From: a virus | Lineage: Duplodnaviria; Heunggongvirae; Uroviricota; Caudoviricetes | Virus record (IMG/VR): IMGVR_UViG_2877285697_000008 | Coordinates: 1-34,640 of that record | DNA length: 34,640 bases | Reading direction: 5' to 3' (one strand) | Notes under the pieces: model-generated | What the model saw: the letters and a program-made list of their open reading frames with translations, nothing else | What the model was told of the DNA's origin: nothing | Databases searched by the model: none | Shown: in pieces, positions 16,775-32,884 of the stretch | How the letters are laid out: the number at the start of each line of letters is the position of its first letter | Position numbering within the stretch: the stretch's first letter is position 1 | Program-made: the position numbers and the translations under genes

Positions 16775-17039
16775 TACGCAGGTCCTTTCAATTGCTGTAC
16801 CGCCCTGGCATTTACAGCCCCCTGCTTGTCAGCGATCAGATTAGCCGCCTCCTGAGGGTTGTTAACTCCATGAACATTTATAACAGTCTGCTGGTTAAGG
16901 TTGCCAGCGGCGGCCTGATACGCCAGCGGGCTGTTCCAGTTTGAATAACCTTCTTTGCGCGCCATCGACTGCATCAATGCTCCCATAGTCCGGGGATCTG
17001 TAAGATTCAATATTGCATTCGGTGGGTAATGACTCCAAC

Positions 17040-17543
17040 TTACTGATAGTGTTTTATGTTCAGATAATGCCCGATGACCTTGTCATGCAGCTCCACCGAT
17101 TTTGAGAACGACAGTGACTTCCGTCCCAGCCTTGCCAGATGTTGTCTCAGATTCAGATTATGTCGCTCAATGCGCTGAGTGTAACGCTTGCTGATAACGT
17201 GCAGCTTTCCCTTCAGGCGTGATTCATACAGCGGCCAGCCATCCGTCATCCATACCACGACCTCAAAGGCCGACAGCAGGCTCAGAAGACGCTCCAGTGT
17301 GGCCAGAGTGCGTTCACCGAAGACGTGCGCCACAACCGTCCTCCGTATCCTGTCATACGCGTAAAACAGCCAGCGCTGACGTGATTTAGCACCGACGTAG
17401 CCCCACTGTTCGTCCATTTCAGCGCAGACAATCACATCACTGCCCGGTTGTATGCGCGAGGTTACCGACTGCGGCCTGAGTTTTTTAAGTGACGTAAAAC
17501 CGTGTTGAGGCCAACGCCCATAATGCGTGCACTGGCGCGACAT
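17040..17543 (-). CDS. insB: IS1 InsB (made as InsAB' by -1 frameshift)
   Basis: 167-aa ORF overlapping insA, typical IS1 arrangement. Confidence 0.9.
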
Positions 17544-17737
17544 CCGACGCCATTCATGGCCATATCAATGATTTTCTGGTGCGTACCGGGCTGAGAGGCG
17601 GTGTAAGTGAACTGTAGTTGCCATGTTTTACGGCAATGAGAGCAGAGATAGCGCTGATGTCCGGCAGTGCTTTTGCCGTTACGCACCACGCCTTCAGTAG
17701 CGGAGCAGGAAGGACATCTGATGGAAATGGAAGCCAC
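17462..17737 (-). CDS. insA: IS1 InsA
   Basis: 91-aa zinc-finger/HTH protein [37 protein letters not shown]... Confidence 0.9.
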
Positions 17738-19680
17738 GCAAGCACCTTAAAATCACCATCATACACTAAATCAGTAAGTTGGCAGCATTACCCATTCGGT
17801 GATACTCCCATCCATTTCGCAACATCCTGTGCATACTTTTTCGGATCGTTGTTATCACCTGCCGGGGCCCAGGTACTGACAATATCCTGAATAGTCTGTA
17901 ATGCCCGTCCGGTTGTTTTCCCGGTAAAGTAACGCATGAGCTGGTTTTTCATCGCCTCCCAGCCCTCAAGAGCTGATTCGAAAAACCGGAACCCTTTACC
18001 GCTCACCGGGCGAATATTCCCTGGATTGTTATTCCGATCGGCTAAAGTACGCTTCGTAGACTGCGCATGTTGTTCCGGCTCAGCACCTGGAATATCTGAC
18101 TGAATATTTGCGCCTTTTACGGTATGAGGATTACGACCAAAATCGGTATCAATGCCAAGCCAGCGCAATGAATCTCCAATATTTTGTTTCGTGTAATCCC
18201 AGGATGACTTCGCACTGGCACCAATATTTTCGCGATCAGAGTACAAATACGCAGCATAAGCCATCCAGCCTTTTAACCACGGCGGGACCAGCAAACCTGA
18301 TATTTTCCCGAAAGCCCCCAGAACCTTGGATACCCAGACACCCGCGATGAATGTACCGAGGATTTCCAGTGCATTTTGCCAGCCGCCAACACCATCTTTT
18401 AGTTCCAGAAGGTGATCACGAAGCCAGGTGATCGCATCCTTCGCTTTATCTATTGCTGGTTGCCATTTTTCCCAGTCGATAAGACTGTTACCGCCTTCTT
18501 TCCATGTTTTGTAGTCTTCCCACAAGAGACCGAGAGCCACGATCAGACCGGTAATCAGCCCTATAGGTGACATCCAGAAAGTAGAGTTAAGTATCCGCAT
18601 GGCGACAACCAGACCGCCGATAACCTCTATCAGGGTTTTCGTTTCGGCATCCAGTTTCCCCCACCACTCGATGATATCTCCGACACCATCGACTATCCGG
18701 AATGCACCCCGCCCGACTATCTCACCCAGCCAGAGGATCCCCTTTATGACCTTTGTGATGGTGACTTCAATTTTGGGAAAATTTTCAATTATCTTTTTGC
18801 GCAGGTTATCAATCTGCCCCGCCAGTCCGTCCGCAAGATTCGATCCGATTTTGTCCCGCGCCATCCCGGCCATTTCACCGAGCGATTTCAGCGAGGTCAT
18901 AAACCGGTTTGACGATAAGGCAGCCTGATCGGCATTAAATCCGATCGCTTTCACCATTTCTGAATACTGAGCGCTGAACTGCCCCACTCCGCGACGCATA
19001 GCCATAAGGGTATTTTCGTCAATGCTCAGCATCTGCGCATACTGGTTAGCCCGGTAATACGGCATACCGCTGAGCTTCTGGCCTACACCAGTAAAAATAG
19101 CGGCCATGTCACGCATGTTACCGCTGGCATCACGGGTCTGTACGCCCAGGCGATTCAGAAAGCCTTCTGCACCGGGATTGTTACGAATAAACCGGGAGAG
19201 GCTTTCCAGAGAAGATCGCGCAGCGTCCACGCTGCCGCCAACCTGCGAAACCGCATAGCCAATAGACTGAATTCCCTGGACTGTCGCGCCGGTGCGCTGT
19301 GACGCCCAGTAAAGATTATCCAGACCGGAGGCGATCTTAGCCGTGAAGGCCACCACGGACAGCGCAGCTCCTTCAACAGCCAGCCCCATTTTGATGACAT
19401 TTGCAGTTGTACCGGCGAGGACAGAACCGAACTTTTTCGCTCCTGCATCATCCACACTGAAGCCAAGCGAGACGAGGAAATCTTTAATAGTCTCGGCGTT
19501 CATTATCCTCTCTCCATTTTTCTACCCGGACATCGTTGTCCTCGCACATATCAAGGTAGTCATTAAGAAGCGCGATGCGACAGAGATCTACCGCACCACT
19601 GTTAAGATCTTTCTGGTCAATATGGAAGGCAAGCGCCGGACGAAGAATAAAATCTTCACCACCCGGCAGGCTATTGAAGG

Positions 19681-20133
19681 TTATTCCGCTGGCGGGATGG
19701 GCGTCTCTTTGGTAGGGTGTCCTTGCAAAAAATTTCCTAGCGAATCGGCGACCACCCGCGCCACCAGCTGCAGCATGACCAGCAGGTCAATATCATCAAA
19801 CATCAGTTCGCCCTGGGTAAATACCGGCACCCATCCGTCCATATGACGCCGCGACACCACCGCAAGACAGGGATGAATAATTGCACTGGTGTCATCTTCG
19901 GTCAGGGAAGACAGTTCCTCAGCGATACGCGGGAGCATGGTTTCAAACACCGGTTTTAACTGCTCGAATTTCACGGTGTCTATTTTGCCGTCAGCAGGCA
20001 AACGGGAGCGAATGCTCCCGAAATCTGACATCATTCCTGCCAGCACCGGCAGAAGTTTGCGGGTCACTTTCAGCTGGTCAAAAACGCTGAGTTTTGCCGC
20101 GCGATATTTCACGCCTTTGATTTCGAATTCCAT
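19681..20133 (-). CDS. Tail assembly chaperone (lambda G / P2 E-like)
   Basis: 150-aa ORF between the tube and tape-measure genes; a -1 frame extension of ~80 codons follows (see frameshift site). Confidence 0.7.
   Translation of the reverse strand: MEFEIKGVKYRAAKLSVFDQLKVTRKLLPVLAGMMSDFGSIRSRLPADGKIDTVKFEQLKPVFETMLPRIAEELSSLTEDDTSAIIHPCLAVVSRRHMDGWVPVFTQGELMFDDIDLLVMLQLVARVVADSLGNFLQGHPTKETPIPPAE
19726..19732 (-). promoter_or_regulatory. Candidate -1 programmed ribosomal frameshift site (slippery heptamer T_TTT_TTG)
   Basis: Minus-strand TTTTTTG near the 3' end of the chaperone ORF; the -1 frame stays open ~80 codons to a TAA at 19483-19485, just inside the tape-measure start. Confidence 0.55.
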
Positions 20134-20136
20134 GTA

Positions 20137-20577
20137 TTAAAACTCCCCGAGAACCTGGTCAATCTTGCCGCAGTCAAGCACCCACGGCATCGTATTACCG
20201 GTTTTAGCGTTGGCGTTATCCGGTTGTTTCTGGAACGCAACACTGCGTGCCGTGATGATGTCGCCGCTGACCTTGTTTCGGATCACAATAACGTTATTCC
20301 CCCATGTGGCAGAAGACTGGCTCTGTGCGTTATACGCCAGCGACAATTTTTTATTTGTCGGTGATGTCTTCAGAAGGTTAACGGTAATCGTCCCGCTTTT
20401 ATCTGCATGGAGACTGTGCATCACTTCGCCATCAGCACCGATGGTCATGGTGTTTTTAGGACCGCCCATCGCAACCACAATCCCCTCTTCAGAACTTGCC
20501 GAACCGTACCCGAGGTCAATCGAACCGGTCGGCCCGGTCAGCGTCGCAGTGACATCCATAAAAGAATAGGTAGACAT
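20137..20577 (-). CDS. Tail tube protein (Mu M / P2 FII-like)
   Basis: 146-aa ORF immediately downstream of the sheath gene. Confidence 0.75.
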   Translation of the reverse strand: MSTYSFMDVTATLTGPTGSIDLGYGSASSEEGIVVAMGGPKNTMTIGADGEVMHSLHADKSGTITVNLLKTSPTNKKLSLAYNAQSQSSATWGNNVIVIRNKVSGDIITARSVAFQKQPDNANAKTGNTMPWVLDCGKIDQVLGEF

Positions 20578-20587
20578 TCACTTCCCC

Positions 20588-21733
20588 TTAGCGAACAACG
20601 TTAATCTGTACGTCAGCGTAATGAACCGCGCCTGCAAGTTTTATTGCAGCCTGAATCACCGGAGCCTTACGGGCTTCACGTTCTGATTGTGCCTGTTCAT
20701 CCAGCGGCTGGGCGTATACGTAATAACCTTTGGGCAGCGTGTCACCTGATGACAACTGACCAAGGTCGCCACCGTTCCATACGCCCGGAGCAATCAGTCC
20801 ATTCTGAACGGCCTGATCCAGTGATTTTTCAACACTTGATAACAGTCGGGTAATACCGGCTTCACTCTGGGGTACTTTCGTGGTGCTGGTATAAAGCAGG
20901 TTATAGAGGTTGGTCTGCACATAATTCTGTAACCAGTCCAGGCCGTGGCGTTCATCAAAGAAATCGCCGTTAGCCATCACTCCCTGCTGGAGGATAGCCG
21001 TATCATTCTGGTAGTACACGAATACATTGCAGTTTTTTGCATCAAGTGCCGATGCCTGGCTGACTGTCAGTGTTTCATACCCGACACCCGGCTCCTGCTT
21101 AAACTTGAGCGTAATCGCGGTATTACTGCCATTGAAATTAACCGTGAATGCCCGGCCAAATGCAGATAACGCAGCGTATTTATTACCCGATGAATACTGA
21201 ATAAAACTGCGTGAATATCCGGCGGTTTTCAGTTTTGATGCCAAATCATCGCTGGATGCGGTCTGCAGGCATTTCTCATCGCTTGTCGTAATCGCCAGAA
21301 TACGGCTTACAGAAGAGGATTCGATCGCCGCAGCCACATTCAGCCAGTCTGCATCCGGAATATCTGCATCGTCTGCAATCCCCAGCCCATACCATGAAGT
21401 ATAATCAAGCATGGCATTCACAGCCTGCTCCAGCGTCTCAGGCGTGGCCTGTTCGCTGTCTCCCTTCGTTTTCACCCAACGACCAACAAAAACCTCCTGA
21501 GGTTTCGGTGATTGTGAGAAAAACACCTGCGCAGCCTTATATTCTGGTGATTCCACGCCAAAATCTTTTCCAATATCTTCCGCAGCAGAATAACGGCGAA
21601 TGCGCTCACTTACCGGAATGATTGTGGACGGGCCGAGAATGAGTAATGCACCAAAATTTCGCCCTGATGCTGCACGCGGCGACATGATCACATCAACATT
21701 AACAACGTTTGATACAGGCAAGCCCTGTGCCAT
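20588..21733 (-). CDS. Contractile tail sheath protein
   Basis: 381-aa ORF at the head of the tail module, followed by tube and chaperone genes. Confidence 0.8.
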
Positions 21734-21736
21734 AGC

Positions 21737-22345
21737 TTAATCTCCGAAAAAGATGACTGGTGCTTCCACCAGCGATTTAATACCGTACTCGCGCACAACC
21801 TTCCGGCGCAGACGCACCGTCATATCGTAGCGGCGGACCCATTGCTGATTAATAAGTTCAGGGAAGGGAGTCAGACCTGTGTAATCGCCAAGAGACAGCC
21901 CCAGCGCATTCAGTGCTGCATTGTTCTGCGGCACAGATATACCGTCACGAAACCGGGACGCATACACCATCCCCGCCGGACCATAAAACGAAGCCATACA
22001 CTCAATCGTTTCATGCCGCCAGAGCTGAGAGCCATCATCGGTCTGTCTGGTGAATGCCGGACTGTCATCACCTGACCATCCGATAACCCCAAACGCACAC
22101 CAGCTCGTTTCAGCCGGTAGCAGTGGCGGCTGCTCTTTCTGCCAGCGCGGACGAACCATCCCGGCAGACAGACCGGAAACGTTACGCATCCACTGGCTTA
22201 ACAGCCTGTCGAGCGCTTCGTCATAATCCGGATCGCCACTGGTTGGTATCAGCCATCCGCACTCTGTGCTGGTGTTATTGCTCAACCGGAATTCCCCCAT
22301 CAAACGGCAGCAACTCACAATGCGCCTGAACGAATCCGGCACCAT
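21737..22345 (-). CDS. Phage structural protein, function unassigned (true start probably internal)
   Basis: ORF directly upstream of the sheath gene; the track start overlaps the upstream gene by 70 nt, a TTG about 11 nt before the upstream stop is a more plausible start. Confidence 0.4.
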   Translation of the reverse strand: MVPDSFRRIVSCCRLMGEFRLSNNTSTECGWLIPTSGDPDYDEALDRLLSQWMRNVSGLSAGMVRPRWQKEQPPLLPAETSWCAFGVIGWSGDDSPAFTRQTDDGSQLWRHETIECMASFYGPAGMVYASRFRDGISVPQNNAALNALGLSLGDYTGLTPFPELINQQWVRRYDMTVRLRRKVVREYGIKSLVEAPVIFFGD

Positions 22346-22664
22346 ACGCTGTATACGGGTCGACGAAAGTCACACGATAATCACGGCCCTGATACGTCAC
22401 GATATCGGCATCACGGCCAGTCTGTCCCTGCGTCAGTCGCTCAGTCGTCACAATCAGAATTGCACCACTGATTACCTGCCCGGCCTGCATACGACGGTTT
22501 TCCAGAGAGCGATCAACAGTAACGACTCCGGCAAACTGCTTTTTAACTTCGCTGTCGCTGCCGATCCCATCCTCATCCACCGTTTGCACACGGCGTGTTA
22601 CCCACAAATTGAAGTCGCAAAAATCGGGGTCAAAAAGCACATCTGTTACATCAAGAGTCGGCAT
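22275..22664 (-). CDS. Phage head-tail joining / tail completion-like protein
   Basis: 129-aa ORF in a tightly overlapping gene string between head and tail modules. Confidence 0.4.
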   Translation of the reverse strand: MPTLDVTDVLFDPDFCDFNLWVTRRVQTVDEDGIGSDSEVKKQFAGVVTVDRSLENRRMQAGQVISGAILIVTTERLTQGQTGRDADIVTYQGRDYRVTFVDPYTAYGAGFVQAHCELLPFDGGIPVEQ

Positions 22665-23908: not shown

Positions 23909-23980
23909 TGAAGTGGCACACTGAATTTGGCCACCTGAACAGAGGTGATATGCTCACCTCAGAACAACACAGGTGCTCCA

Positions 23981-25149
<1,169 letters not shown>

Positions 25150-25347
25150 CCACTTCACTTCCTGTGATTTACTGTTATCGCTGCCTGTCACAATAGGTTG
25201 CTTTAATTCTTCCTCATCACTCACTCCTGCGACGCTCCGTGGCAGGGCCCCCCACAGGAGTACCTTGTAAATGTAAGGTGTTTAAGCCTAAATTAAGTCG
25301 TATCACGGTTAAATAGCAAAGAAAAATTCACAGAAGGAAAGACATTG

Positions 25348-25857
25348 ATGGAGTGGATAAATGCTTTGATGAACTATTTTGTACTTCATCCATATCGCCT
25401 ATGGGGGCTTCTTTTTATAATAGCGTTCACAAAATCCACTTTACTCATTTCGTCGATATTGCCACCAGCATCAATTATGATGGCCACTGTAATTACAGTC
25501 AGCAAGACGACTCTTTCACCATGGGAAGCTGGAATCACGGTCATGAGTGGCGCATGGTGCGGTACTATCGTTAATTACCATCTTGGTATAATAATTGGGC
25601 ATATCCCTCAACTTGCATGTATAATATCGAGCCGTTCCAATACAATAGAACGGGTTCGCCTTCAGTTGCAAAATAACTCTGTGTCAATACTTTTCACTTC
25701 GCGCTTTATCGCCGTGCTGCGTTATATTGCTCCTTTGGTGGCAGGAATGTTGCAACTTCATCCAGTGAAAGTGTATACAGTGAGTCTGATTTCAGCTGCT
25801 AGCTGGTCAGCACTTTATGTTGGTAGTTTTAGCTTCGTGTTGCCTTTTTTTAGCTAA
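25348..25857 (+). CDS. DedA/YqaA-like small integral membrane protein
   Basis: 169 aa, multiple hydrophobic helices, Gly-rich mid-motif; AGGAAA RBS; lies in an AT-rich 853-bp segment bracketed by inverted IS911 copies. Confidence 0.5.
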   Translation: MEWINALMNYFVLHPYRLWGLLFIIAFTKSTLLISSILPPASIMMATVITVSKTTLSPWEAGITVMSGAWCGTIVNYHLGIIIGHIPQLACIISSRSNTIERVRLQLQNNSVSILFTSRFIAVLRYIAPLVAGMLQLHPVKVYTVSLISAASWSALYVGSFSFVLPFFS

Positions 25858-26018: not shown

Positions 26019-27187
<1,169 letters not shown>

Positions 27188-27379
27188 TGGAGCACCTGTG
27201 TTGTTCTGAGGTGAGCATATCACCTCTGTTCAGGTGGCCAAATTCAGTGTGCCACTTCAGGTTATGGCTTTTGGTATAGAGAAAAAAGTTATTGCTTTTT
27301 GACGTAAAAACTGCTTCAATTCTTGTACGCTTCGCAAAGCTGTACCGCGAGGCGAATAGCAGACATGGACATTTGAAAG

Positions 27380-28482: not shown

Positions 28483-28698
28483 ATGTATCAGATGGAAAAA
28501 ATATCAACAGGCATTGCCTACGGCACCTCCGCCGGCAGTGCCGGCTACTGGTTTTTGCAGTGGTTGGATCAGGTCAGTCCATCACAGTGGGCTGCGATTG
28601 GTGTGCTGGGAAGTCTGCTTCTGGGGCTTCTGACTTATCTGACGAATCTGTATTTCAAAATAAGAGAAGATAAGCGTAAGGCTGCGAGAGGTGAATAA
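28483..28698 (+). CDS. S: Class II holin / pinholin (phage 21 S21-like), dual-start motif
   Basis: 71 aa, [71 protein letters not shown], recalled as very close to phage 21 pinholin; Met1 and Met4 starts. Confidence 0.85.
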
Positions 28699-29195
28699 TG
28701 TCGCCATCATTACGCAAGGCTGTTGCAGTTGCTATTGGTGGCGGGGCTGTTGCTATAGCATCTGTGTTAATCACTGGCCCAGGTGGTAACGATGGTCTGG
28801 AAGGTGTCAGCTACATACCATACAAAGATATCATTGGTGTATGGACTGTATGTCACGGACACACCGGAAAAGACATCATGCCTGGTAAAACGTATACCGA
28901 AGCAGAATGCAAAGCTCTCCTGAATAAAGACCTTGCCACTGTCGCCAGACAAATTAACCCGTACATCAAAGTCGATATACCGGAAACAACGCGCGGCGCT
29001 CTTTACTCGTTCGTTTACAACGTGGGCGCTGGCAATTTCAGAACATCGACGCTTCTTCGCAAAATAAACCAGGGCGATATCAAAGGCGCATGTGACCAGC
29101 TACGTCGCTGGACATATGCTGGCGGTAAGCAATGGAAAGGGCTGATGACCCGTCGTGAGATTGAGCGTGAAGTCTGTTTGTGGGGGCAGCAATGA
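28698..29195 (+). CDS. R: SAR endolysin (T4-lysozyme-like muramidase, phage 21 R-like)
   Basis: 165 aa; N-terminal signal-anchor-release segment ([18 protein letters not shown]) followed by a Glu/Asp/Thr catalytic region; start overlaps the holin stop. Confidence 0.85.
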
Positions 29196-29609
29196 GCAGA
29201 GTCACCGCGATTATCTCCGCTCTGGTTATCTGCATCATCGTCTGCCTGTCATGGGCTGTTAATCATTACCGTGATAACGCCATTACCTACAAAGAGCAGC
29301 GCGACAAAAACGCAAGAGAACTGAAGCTGGCGAACGCAACCATTACTGACATGCAGCAGCGCCAGCGTGCTGCTGATGCACTCGATGCTAAATACACGAA
29401 GGAGTTAGCCAATGCGAAAGCTGAAAATGATGCTCTTCGGCGCAAGCTTGATAATGGTGGTTGGGTGCTCGTCAAAGGAAAATGCCCTGTGCCATCCTCA
29501 GCCGAAACCTCCAGCGCCTCCGGCATGGGCAATGATGCCACCGTCGAACTCTCTCCAGTTGCTGGACGAAACGTTCTCGGTATCCGGGACGGAATCATCA
29601 TGAAGTGGC
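29192..29609 (+). pseudogene. Rz: Rz i-spanin, C-terminally truncated by IS911
   Basis: [34 protein letters not shown]... matches the lambda Rz N-terminus; native reading ends at the IS911 junction (29609/29610) and the last ~30 residues of the track ORF are IS-encoded. Confidence 0.8.
29412..29603 (+). CDS. Rz1: Rz1 o-spanin lipoprotein, embedded in the +1 frame of Rz
   Basis: Lipobox LIMVVGCSS and Pro-rich mature region ([16 protein letters not shown]), as in lambda Rz1. Confidence 0.75.
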
Positions 29610-29681
29610 TGAAGTGGCACACTGAATTTGGCCACCTGAACAGAGGTGATATGCTCACCTCAGAACAACACAGGTGCTCCA

Positions 29682-30850
<1,169 letters not shown>

Positions 30851-31727: not shown

Positions 31728-32546
31728 TTAAGCAGCCATCTGATGATATTTTTCCCTGAAGGCTGCCGGGGAGATATTCCCCAGACGAGAGTGACGACGC
31801 TGACGATTGTAGAAAATCTCAATGTATTCCCGTATTACTGAGATGGCTTCATCCCGGTTATTAAAACGATAGTGGCTCAGGCTCTCATTTTTCAGCGTTC
31901 CCCAGAAGCTTTCCATCGGAGCGTTGTCGTAACAGTTACCTTTACGCGACATTGATGTTTTCAGACCAAACTGCTCCTGTATGACCCGGTAATCGTATGC
32001 GCAGTACTGTGAACCTCGATCAGAGTGGTGGATTAGCCCGGCAGGTGGGCGCTGGCTCCTGAGCGCCATAAACAGGGCTTTACCTGTCAGCTCTTTTGTC
32101 ATGCGCTCTCCCATGGCGTAGCCGACAATTTCGCACGTATAAACATCTTTGATGCCAGCGAGGTACAACCATCCCTCCTGTGTGGCAACATACGTCAGGT
32201 CCGCCACCCAGACCTGATTTGGTGCTGTAGGAGCGAACGTCTGGTTCAGCAGATTTGGCGCAACTGGCAGATTGTGGTTCGGGTTCGTAGTCGCTCTGAA
32301 CTTGCGTTTCTGCTTACAGCGTAGCCTTAGCTCCTTACGAAGACGTGCCAGTCGGTCACGACCAACGATGATGCCATTCTCTGCCAGCTCCGTCTGGAGC
32401 CGCCGGGTTCCATATGTTTCGCGAGTGCGGATATGTGCCACCTTAATCTCCAGTTTTAGCCGCTCATCACTTTGTTTTCTGTCTGAGGGTTCATGCTGTA
32501 CCCAGTTGTAATAACCGCTCCTGGATACACCAAATACCTGACACAT
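31728..32546 (-). CDS. IS600 OrfB
   Basis: Identical protein to 6682-7500. Confidence 0.9.
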   Translation of the reverse strand: MCQVFGVSRSGYYNWVQHEPSDRKQSDERLKLEIKVAHIRTRETYGTRRLQTELAENGIIVGRDRLARLRKELRLRCKQKRKFRATTNPNHNLPVAPNLLNQTFAPTAPNQVWVADLTYVATQEGWLYLAGIKDVYTCEIVGYAMGERMTKELTGKALFMALRSQRPPAGLIHHSDRGSQYCAYDYRVIQEQFGLKTSMSRKGNCYDNAPMESFWGTLKNESLSHYRFNNRDEAISVIREYIEIFYNRQRRHSRLGNISPAAFREKYHQMAA

Positions 32547-32581
32547 CGCTTCAATGGGAAATTGTTGTCGCCATTGTTCGA

Positions 32582-32884
32582 TTAACGCGTATTTTTCAGC
32601 GACTCCTGTGCAAAATACGCTGTTGCTTTTTTTAATATATCTCGCTCAAGGCGAGCTTCATTTAACGCCTTACGCAGTTGCAGAATTTCAGATTCCAGTT
32701 CAGCCACCGTGCGGGAACCAGGAGTACCGAGCCCTTTTCTGGCGGCGGTAACCCATTGTCCTAAAGTGCCTTCAGGAAGGGATAATCGGGAAGCGCCTTC
32801 ACTGATCGAAAGTTGATTTTCAAGAACCGTTCTGACAGCTTCGGCTTTGAACTCTTTAGAGTAACGTTGGGTTTTTCTGCTCAT
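32582..32884 (-). CDS. IS600 OrfA
   Basis: One substitution relative to copy 1 (TVLENQ versus TVPENQ). Confidence 0.9.
   Translation of the reverse strand: MSRKTQRYSKEFKAEAVRTVLENQLSISEGASRLSLPEGTLGQWVTAARKGLGTPGSRTVAELESEILQLRKALNEARLERDILKKATAYFAQESLKNTR

Follow-up and report, generated by a model that had tools for sequence, protein, structure and literature searches.

The IMG/VR virus record IMGVR_UViG_2877285697_000008 is a stretch of 34,640 nucleotides (nt), the whole of which is referred to below as the window; its tail features all lie on the minus strand. The tail assembly chaperone gene of this SEN34-like (Brunovirus-like) temperate myovirus very probably contains a programmed -1 frameshift site of the G/GT type. 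The tail tube gene (20137-20577; Pfam KPP10_Orf10, E 1.7e-60), which RefSeq names 'DUF3277 family protein', is located directly upstream of the chaperone gene (19681-20133). The 0 frame of the latter encodes the short 'G-like' product of 150 amino acids (aa) and terminates with TAA at 19681-19683. This product passes the Pfam gathering threshold for PF21822 Phage_TAC_15 (108.6 bits against 22) and matches phrog_1688 with E 1.6e-64. The -1 open reading frame (ORF) then runs to 19484, and the tape-measure gene begins from 19503 (ATG 19501-19503) and extends to 17788 as a truncated ORF of 571 aa (phrog_2276, E 1.9e-224). Two overlapping ORFs between the tube and tape-measure genes are characteristic of the G/GT class. 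The first-pass annotation, made from the DNA letters and a list of translated ORFs, had placed a chaperone ORF between these two genes, and the Pfam and PHROG matches of the flanking genes agree with it.

In the chaperone frame, the minus strand is read as ...CTA GGA AAT TTT TTG CAA.... The TTTTTTG at 19726-19732, already noticed close to the gene's 3' end in the first-pass annotation, is indeed in the X_XXY_YYZ phase, its first T being the third base of AAT and being followed by TTT and TTG. It begins 17 codons ahead of the chaperone stop. A second in-phase heptamer, A_AAT_TTT (19729-19735), overlaps T_TTT_TTG. The site is described here as A_AAT_TTT_TTG (19726-19735) because the constraint on the GGA and AAT codons, given below, fits a second overlapping heptamer.

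After a -1 slip at this site, 80 sense codons are open down to a TAA at 19484-19486, which lies 20 nt inside the tape-measure ORF. This 'T-like' extension (19484-19726) is recognised from its translation, from phrog_4364 and from the profile of its relatives. Both frames are open in the overlap zone between the slip site and the 0-frame stop (19684-19726). The predicted fusion consists of 216 aa, with residues 1-136 read in frame 0 and residues 137-216 in frame -1. The earlier description of an open frame of about 80 codons reaching the tape-measure start therefore holds, as does the right end of the span 19483-20133 assigned to the element, while its left end was placed one base too far. An 80-codon open frame is found in 1.4% of mononucleotide shuffles of the same stretch and on its own is a weak, only suggestive sign. 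The extension is regarded as being beyond chance because of the comparative evidence and not because of the length of the open frame.

Conservation of the slip site and the second frame

The comparative scan included one genome per species and covered 47 loci with chaperones 33-87% identical. At 45 of these loci, an in-phase T_TTT_TTN is found about 16 codons before the stop, and the -1 ORF continues for about 62 codons past the stop and matches the extension profile (E 1e-8 to 1e-41). The chaperone frame is prematurely interrupted in the remaining two (L094 and L128). Four phages, namely E. coli vB_EcoM-606R2, Yersinia YP3, Salmonella SEN34 and Klebsiella Mulock, with chaperone identity declining from 98% to about 60%, keep GGGAAATTTTTTG, the 177-nt "gap" and a -1 ORF of 77-78 codons ending in ...KWRE.NER. 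The slip site was also present in 80/80 close viral contigs examined. A second frame lacking both conservation and any similarity to chaperone extensions would have spoken against the first-pass proposal; the 45 loci and four phages keep the extension, and that of Mulock is homologous.

The codons forming the site are almost invariant among the 47 unique relatives, with synonymous alternatives being common elsewhere in the same genes. TTT is used at the slip site in 47/47 (51% elsewhere), AAT in all 44 of the 44 Asn codons (37% elsewhere) and TTG in 40/40 Leu codons (14% elsewhere). The preceding GGA is found in 42/47 compared to 12% elsewhere. The synonymous constraint on GGA and AAT is located upstream of the T_TTT_TTG heptamer.

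The second frame is constrained at the protein level in these diverged relatives, which together with the conserved slip site is a further property of the G/GT class. In the overlap zone, the mean pairwise amino acid identity is 0.578 in the -1 frame versus 0.339 in the 0 frame, and the motif A-R-T-P-[RY]-Q-R-D directly after the slip site is conserved in the -1 frame. The codon-position entropy of the -1 frame across the supposed intergenic gap is 0.73/0.58/1.42, which is coding-like; the values for the chaperone body are 0.72/0.54/1.26 and those for the overlap zone are 0.95/0.69/1.35, with the third-position peak in the overlap zone falling in the -1 phase. At three loci (L112, L122 and L125), the -1 frame can only be entered at the heptamer, since a -1-frame stop stands immediately ahead of it.

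The DUF6889 extension and its annotation

The extension passes the gathering threshold for Pfam PF21829 DUF6889 (43.9 bits, threshold 23.9) over fusion residues 174-211, which correspond to positions 19502-19615 and form the core of the small helical domain ending the extension. It also matches phrog_4364 with E 3e-17. Both families are listed with unknown function in Pfam and PHROGs. The AlphaFold2 model of the 216-aa fusion, built from a seven-sequence alignment, has a mean predicted local distance difference test score (pLDDT) of 77 and a predicted template modelling score of 0.73. In the model, residues 1-137 form a confident chaperone domain, the linker at 139-155 is disordered (pLDDT <50), and residues 157-216 form a C-terminal domain that is confident and helical, with helices at 161-168, 174-179 and 184-215 (pLDDT 84-91). 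In BFVD, the model matches chaperones of tail assembly or of the tape measure (best E 6.9e-7); nothing informative was found for DUF6889.

The TGA that usually ends the extension (...NER*) is CGA in the window (19484-19495), which adds the three residues RDY. In the tape-measure frame, the change from TGA to CGA leaves the amino acid unaltered (GCT to GCC, Ala3), and this polymorphism is seen in viral contigs on both alleles of the extension.

The first-pass annotation had expected such an element to be missed by ORF callers, and the public records bear this out. In RefSeq, the extension is presented as a stand-alone 'DUF6889 family protein', positioned at 3185-3277 (30 aa) in L005 and at 3185-3385 (66 aa) in L006; these two are near-identical E. 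coli prophages, yet the RefSeq starts differ. No annotation covers the 177-nt gap in the other phage records that were examined. In the public protein sets, the domain occurs almost only as ORFs of 24-93 aa, called 'DUF6889 family protein' or, wrongly, "lytic transglycosylase". The RefSeq name of the tape-measure protein is 'lytic transglycosylase catalytic', and several DUF6889 fragments in nr are named 'lytic transglycosylase'. The prophage family is widespread in enterobacteria, and the tail stretch is matched by 367 of 5,426 complete E. coli genomes.

No paper mentioning DUF6889 and none describing a frameshift in the Phage_TAC_15/DUF6889 family was found in the literature search. The frameshift annotation of the Mulock homologue in GenBank was already known. 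What is added here is the assignment of DUF6889, the systematic mis-annotation in RefSeq, the possible composite site, the two-gene alternative and the mosaicism of the extension cassette. The main value lies in annotation: treating DUF6889 as the frameshift extension of Phage_TAC_15 assigns the domain a role and sets many records right. It also adds a well-conserved example of G/GT-type recoding, free of RNA structure, in a group of contractile-tailed phages, with natural controls in the form of two-gene relatives and of an extension cassette exchanged between tail modules that are identical in other respects.

Frameshifting and the rival explanations

In the window, the -1 frame after the site contains a sole ATG/GTG/TTG, which is codon 59 of 80 and falls within the conserved core; no Shine-Dalgarno motif was found at this codon. 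In many relatives, the only Met of the extension lies inside the domain; no start position is conserved among them, and L122 has no start at all. A downstream ORF devoid of its own translation start is likewise expected in the G/GT class, and with it every testable defining feature of the class is present in the window. The class is further marked by a fusion protein made at a low fixed ratio, needed for tail assembly and missing from virions.

The closest parallel in the site itself is phage P2, where the E/E+E' frameshift is reported to have been verified experimentally. The P2 annotation gives a 'site of -1 translational frameshift' at 19685 of its record, within GGT TTT TTG (19684-19690), that is, the identical T_TTT_TTG heptamer in the same phase. 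As in the window, the P2 gene belongs to a myovirus and lies between the tube and tape-measure genes (FETUD tail operon, contractile tail), and the end of its extension overlaps the tape-measure start. P2 differs in the size of the products (E 91 aa and E+E' 142 aa versus 150 and 216 aa), in that the second overlapping heptamer A_AAT_TTT is also conserved here, and in protein family, as judged from a Pfam scan of the window fusion (E<=0.01) that gave only PF21822 and PF21829 rather than from a direct alignment.

Lambda G/GT has the same arrangement of tail-tube gene, chaperone ORF, startless overlapping -1 ORF and tape-measure gene, and there too the second ORF runs on into the first few bases of the tape-measure gene. 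The differences are the slip site (G_GGA_AAG), the siphovirus tail and the length of the T extension (about 144 aa versus 80 aa). What is shared with lambda is the architecture and the mechanism rather than the protein family, since no sequence similarity is detectable. Homology to lambda gpG/gpT does not define the class, which is known for low sequence similarity. The match to lambda G/GT and P2 E/E' claimed in the first-pass annotation is thus exact for the P2 heptamer and phase and correct for the lambda architecture, but does not extend to lambda protein similarity; the comparison of the fused product with known frameshifted chaperones gave homology to the Mulock extension and no detectable similarity to lambda G or T. 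The literature on the class, as cited in PMC5009743, includes Levin et al. 1993 and Xu, Hendrix & Duda 2004, 2013, 2014.

Klebsiella phage Mulock (CPT_Mulock_014/015, MN098327) has a true homologue with a chaperone 60% identical, the same GGGAAATTTTTTG site and a 78-codon extension ending in ...KWREANER; its extension allele is a different one. Its joined coding sequence (CDS) is named 'tape measure chaperone frameshift product', which is an annotation only; the genome announcement (PMC6856289) does not mention the frameshift.

Several results weigh against the frameshift. U_UUU_UUG stands outside the motif class that is most efficient in E. coli and is not in the gene-search subset of Sharma et al. 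2014 (PMC4066793). The 120 nt downstream of the site fold no better in the window than shuffles (z -0.30), the RNAalifold consensus of 16 diverse relatives is essentially empty (two invariant pairs, -0.31 kcal/mol) and Rfam gave no match at E<=1 in window 19300-20300; the downstream stem-loop or pseudoknot suggested as a check in the first-pass annotation was found by none of the three. Comparison of lambda G and T with both halves of the fusion by hhalign revealed no similarity (probability 0.2-0.3%). The case for shifting is built on sequence comparisons. Finally, the product can have no tail-assembly role in the window genome, because IS1 interrupts the tape-measure gene.

A low shift rate is what a G/GT system needs, despite the position of U_UUU_UUG outside the efficient class. 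The lambda slip site reportedly works without a strong RNA stimulator, and the absence of a stimulatory RNA element here would be consistent with this low-rate case. A local CCCGCCAGCGGG hairpin about 30 nt downstream in some relatives was rejected as a stimulator, being not conserved and too distant. An upstream Shine-Dalgarno-like stimulator was rejected as well, the sole candidate being (A/G)GGA just 2-3 nt from the heptamer. In work on dnaX, a Shine-Dalgarno spacing of 10-14 nt is reported to stimulate -1 shifts. As the spacing here is closer, (A/G)GGA is better read as part of the overlapping heptamers.

The shift site may be a composite of the overlapping heptamers A_AAU_UUU and U_UUU_UUG rather than a single heptamer. 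A_AAT_TTT falls in the H_HH.U_UU.Y class, which was ranked among the most efficient in E. coli by Sharma et al. 2014 (PMC4066793). In most relatives, the composite candidate is preceded by G_GGA_AAU. The two possible slips could give products differing at one residue, F or L at position 136, with the predicted junctions VVADSLGNFLAR (...GNFL-AR...) or ...GNFFAR.

The same fusion could arise from transcriptional slippage, with RNA polymerase adding an extra U in the U6 run of some mRNAs. Fusions of this kind are known to arise in this other way (review PMC5009743), and the junction does contain a homopolymer, T6 in the window and T7 in some relatives. This route is nevertheless judged improbable. 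The identical heptamer is annotated in P2 as a translational frameshift site, and the fixed GGA and AAT fit re-pairing of tRNAs on overlapping heptamers while being irrelevant to polymerase slippage. Documented bacterial sites of transcriptional slippage are reported to use longer runs, of about 8-9 or more A/T.

Less likely still is that DUF6889 represents a separate small gene with a start of its own in the gap that follows the chaperone gene and precedes the tape-measure gene, perhaps used by ribosomes re-initiating once the chaperone stop is passed. Such a gene is favoured by the 'DUF6889 family protein' CDSs that RefSeq lists as stand-alone and by the short ORFs that make up nearly all database entries of the domain. 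The called starts are, however, erratic, both between the two near-identical prophages and over the whole size range of the entries, and neither the single canonical start of the window, lying within the domain and lacking a Shine-Dalgarno motif, nor the startless L122 suits independent translation. Conservation of the -1 frame sets in right after the slip site, upstream of the chaperone stop, and natural in-frame proteins joining the chaperone to DUF6889 are known. The separate gene can be considered largely refuted. A coincidental heptamer and open frame yielding no product, for which the shuffle frequency and the failed fold tests could be cited, is given practically no credence, being refuted by the comparative data: conservation at 45/47 loci, coding periodicity, domain matches in Pfam and PHROGs, and natural fusions.

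With programmed -1 frameshifting as the favoured explanation, most ribosomes would make the 150-aa chaperone and terminate at 19681-19683. A small fraction would slip back one base on A_AAU_UUU_UUG (19726-19735) and continue through the apparent 177-nt gap, yielding the 216-aa protein composed of the chaperone domain, a flexible linker of about 20 residues and the small helical DUF6889 domain. In the lambda model, tape-measure binding is the task of the chaperone domain, and recruitment of tube subunits that of the extension (PMC5009743); the application of this model to the chaperone and extension studied here is by analogy. If lambda gpG/gpGT and P2 gpE/gpE+E' are taken as the guide, the N-terminal domain common to both products would coat the tape-measure protein, and the rare long form would use its extension to bring in tube subunits and so start tail polymerisation. 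We infer the actual ribosomal shifting, the ratio of the products and the binding partner of DUF6889.

Extension exchange, two-gene relatives and the state of the prophage

The window is 97-100% identical to L001 (vB_EcoM-606R2) per 100 nt through nearly all of 18117-22400, with two blocks in this range being lower (90% and 93%). At 19517-19716, a block that opens directly behind the slip site and reaches the tape-measure ribosome-binding site, the identity is only about 55%. In L099 and L133, the window allele of the extension accompanies another chaperone (63% identical). It is found in 6 of the 80 closest viral contigs, and the other allele in about 70. It is tentatively proposed that the T-like DUF6889 extension behaves as an exchangeable cassette with breaks at the slip site and the tape-measure ribosome-binding site. 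Evasion of a chaperone-sensing immune receptor was considered as an explanation of the extension mosaic and set aside.

A profile search of 1.84 billion representative proteins revealed six clusters of 191-210-aa proteins in which a chaperone-like N-terminus and a C-terminal DUF6889 are encoded by one ORF. The DUF6889 Pfam threshold is passed in 6/6 clusters and that of Phage_TAC_15 in four (P0106, P0119, P0132 and P0172). These one-ORF fusions align end to end with the conceptual frameshift product at 23-30% identity, including the junction (window ...SLGNFL-ARTPYQ... versus relatives ...NFGPFF-ALERPTF...). The junction DNA was checked in two: TTC TTC in L134 is non-slippery, and CGC TTT TTC in L135 is not a canonical heptamer. 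Four other database proteins were discarded: P0030 (74 aa), which seems to fuse the frames, changes frame again and is probably a low-quality assembly; P0031, a chimera of a siroheme-synthase-like N-terminus and DUF6889, was treated as an assembly artefact; and P0044 and P0068 are long repetitive proteins matching the profile and are unrelated.

In 5/5 contigs examined, a separate shorter Phage_TAC_15 gene is located beside or near the fusion gene (L134 231-1285; L135 108-1238; L138 510-983 and 4001-4633; L139 3493-4585; L140 3499-4630). The short chaperone and the long chaperone-like protein ending in DUF6889 correspond to the two products that would be expected from the frameshift, and the long genes pass the Phage_TAC_15 cut-off in three of the five loci. 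These loci differ from the window in having two paralogous genes, with no slip site at the L134 junction, and in L138 the short and long genes are separated by two others. From the presence of short and fusion genes in these distant contigs, it follows that some lineages use two genes where the window lineage would use one gene and recoding. In L139 and L140, baseplate genes (Dit-like, spike, hub) follow directly on the gene pair, and a tape-measure gene is not obvious between the two groups.

Taken together, it is possible, though rather doubtful as a whole, that a composite site maintained by synonymous selection sets the ratio of short to long product with no RNA structure, that the extension is exchanged as a cassette and that distant lineages have replaced the arrangement with a gene pair. 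If true, this would offer a natural system for studying the determinants of the G:GT ratio and the target of the extension.

The tail module of the window also includes the tail sheath gene (20588-21733; Pfam DUF3383, E 1.4e-100; phrog_205 tail sheath, E 8.9e-135). The module shares 99.7-99.9% identity with its counterpart in E. coli FDAARGOS_944, where the tape-measure gene is uninterrupted. The frameshift cassette has remained intact and does not differ from the one in FDAARGOS_944. In the window, an IS1 insert of 768 bp (17025-17792; Pfam IS1 transposase, ORF 17040-17543) lies in the tape-measure gene, with its boundaries defined by comparison with L005, which matches both flanks; 9 bp are shared at the junction. 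The insert cuts off about 83 C-terminal codons, leaving 571 aa versus 650 aa in the uninterrupted E. coli copy. The frameshift element is thus an intact relic in a decayed, IS-riddled myovirus remnant. As for the earlier statement that the tail module was once functional, the near-identical E. coli module is uninterrupted and the module here is broken by IS1, so that past function is deduced rather than observed.

No head genes, which intact relatives have upstream, were found among the window ORFs scanned; IS copies fill the position upstream of 23609 where these genes are located in intact relatives. Many IS elements occur across the window, including a second IS1 transposase ORF at 33352-33855. 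The tail-fibre gene (Pfam phage_tail_N) is split into an N-terminal part (8907-9245) and a continuation (2565-3704), which are separated by an element of the IS4 family (3991-5337) and one of the IS66 family (5446-8986), the latter being interrupted by an IS3-family element (6682-7838). Further IS3-family copies are found at 23945-25149 (+), 26019-27223 (-), 29646-30850 (+) and 31728-32884 (-); three of the four are copies of one element (112-aa and 279-aa ORFs), and one is another element (100-aa and 272-aa ORFs). Copies of this family flank a DedA/VTT-domain gene (25345-25857) and two phage lysis genes, for lysozyme (28698-29195) and Rz (29180-29701).

An ipaH-type effector gene with type III secretion LRR and NEL E3 ligase domains occupies positions 1-1811 (+) of the window and is split into ORFs 1-612 and 645-1811 in different frames. 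This gene is possibly a pseudogene, or else truncated at the edge of the window. The presence of this ipaH-type gene points to a Shigella-type chromosome.

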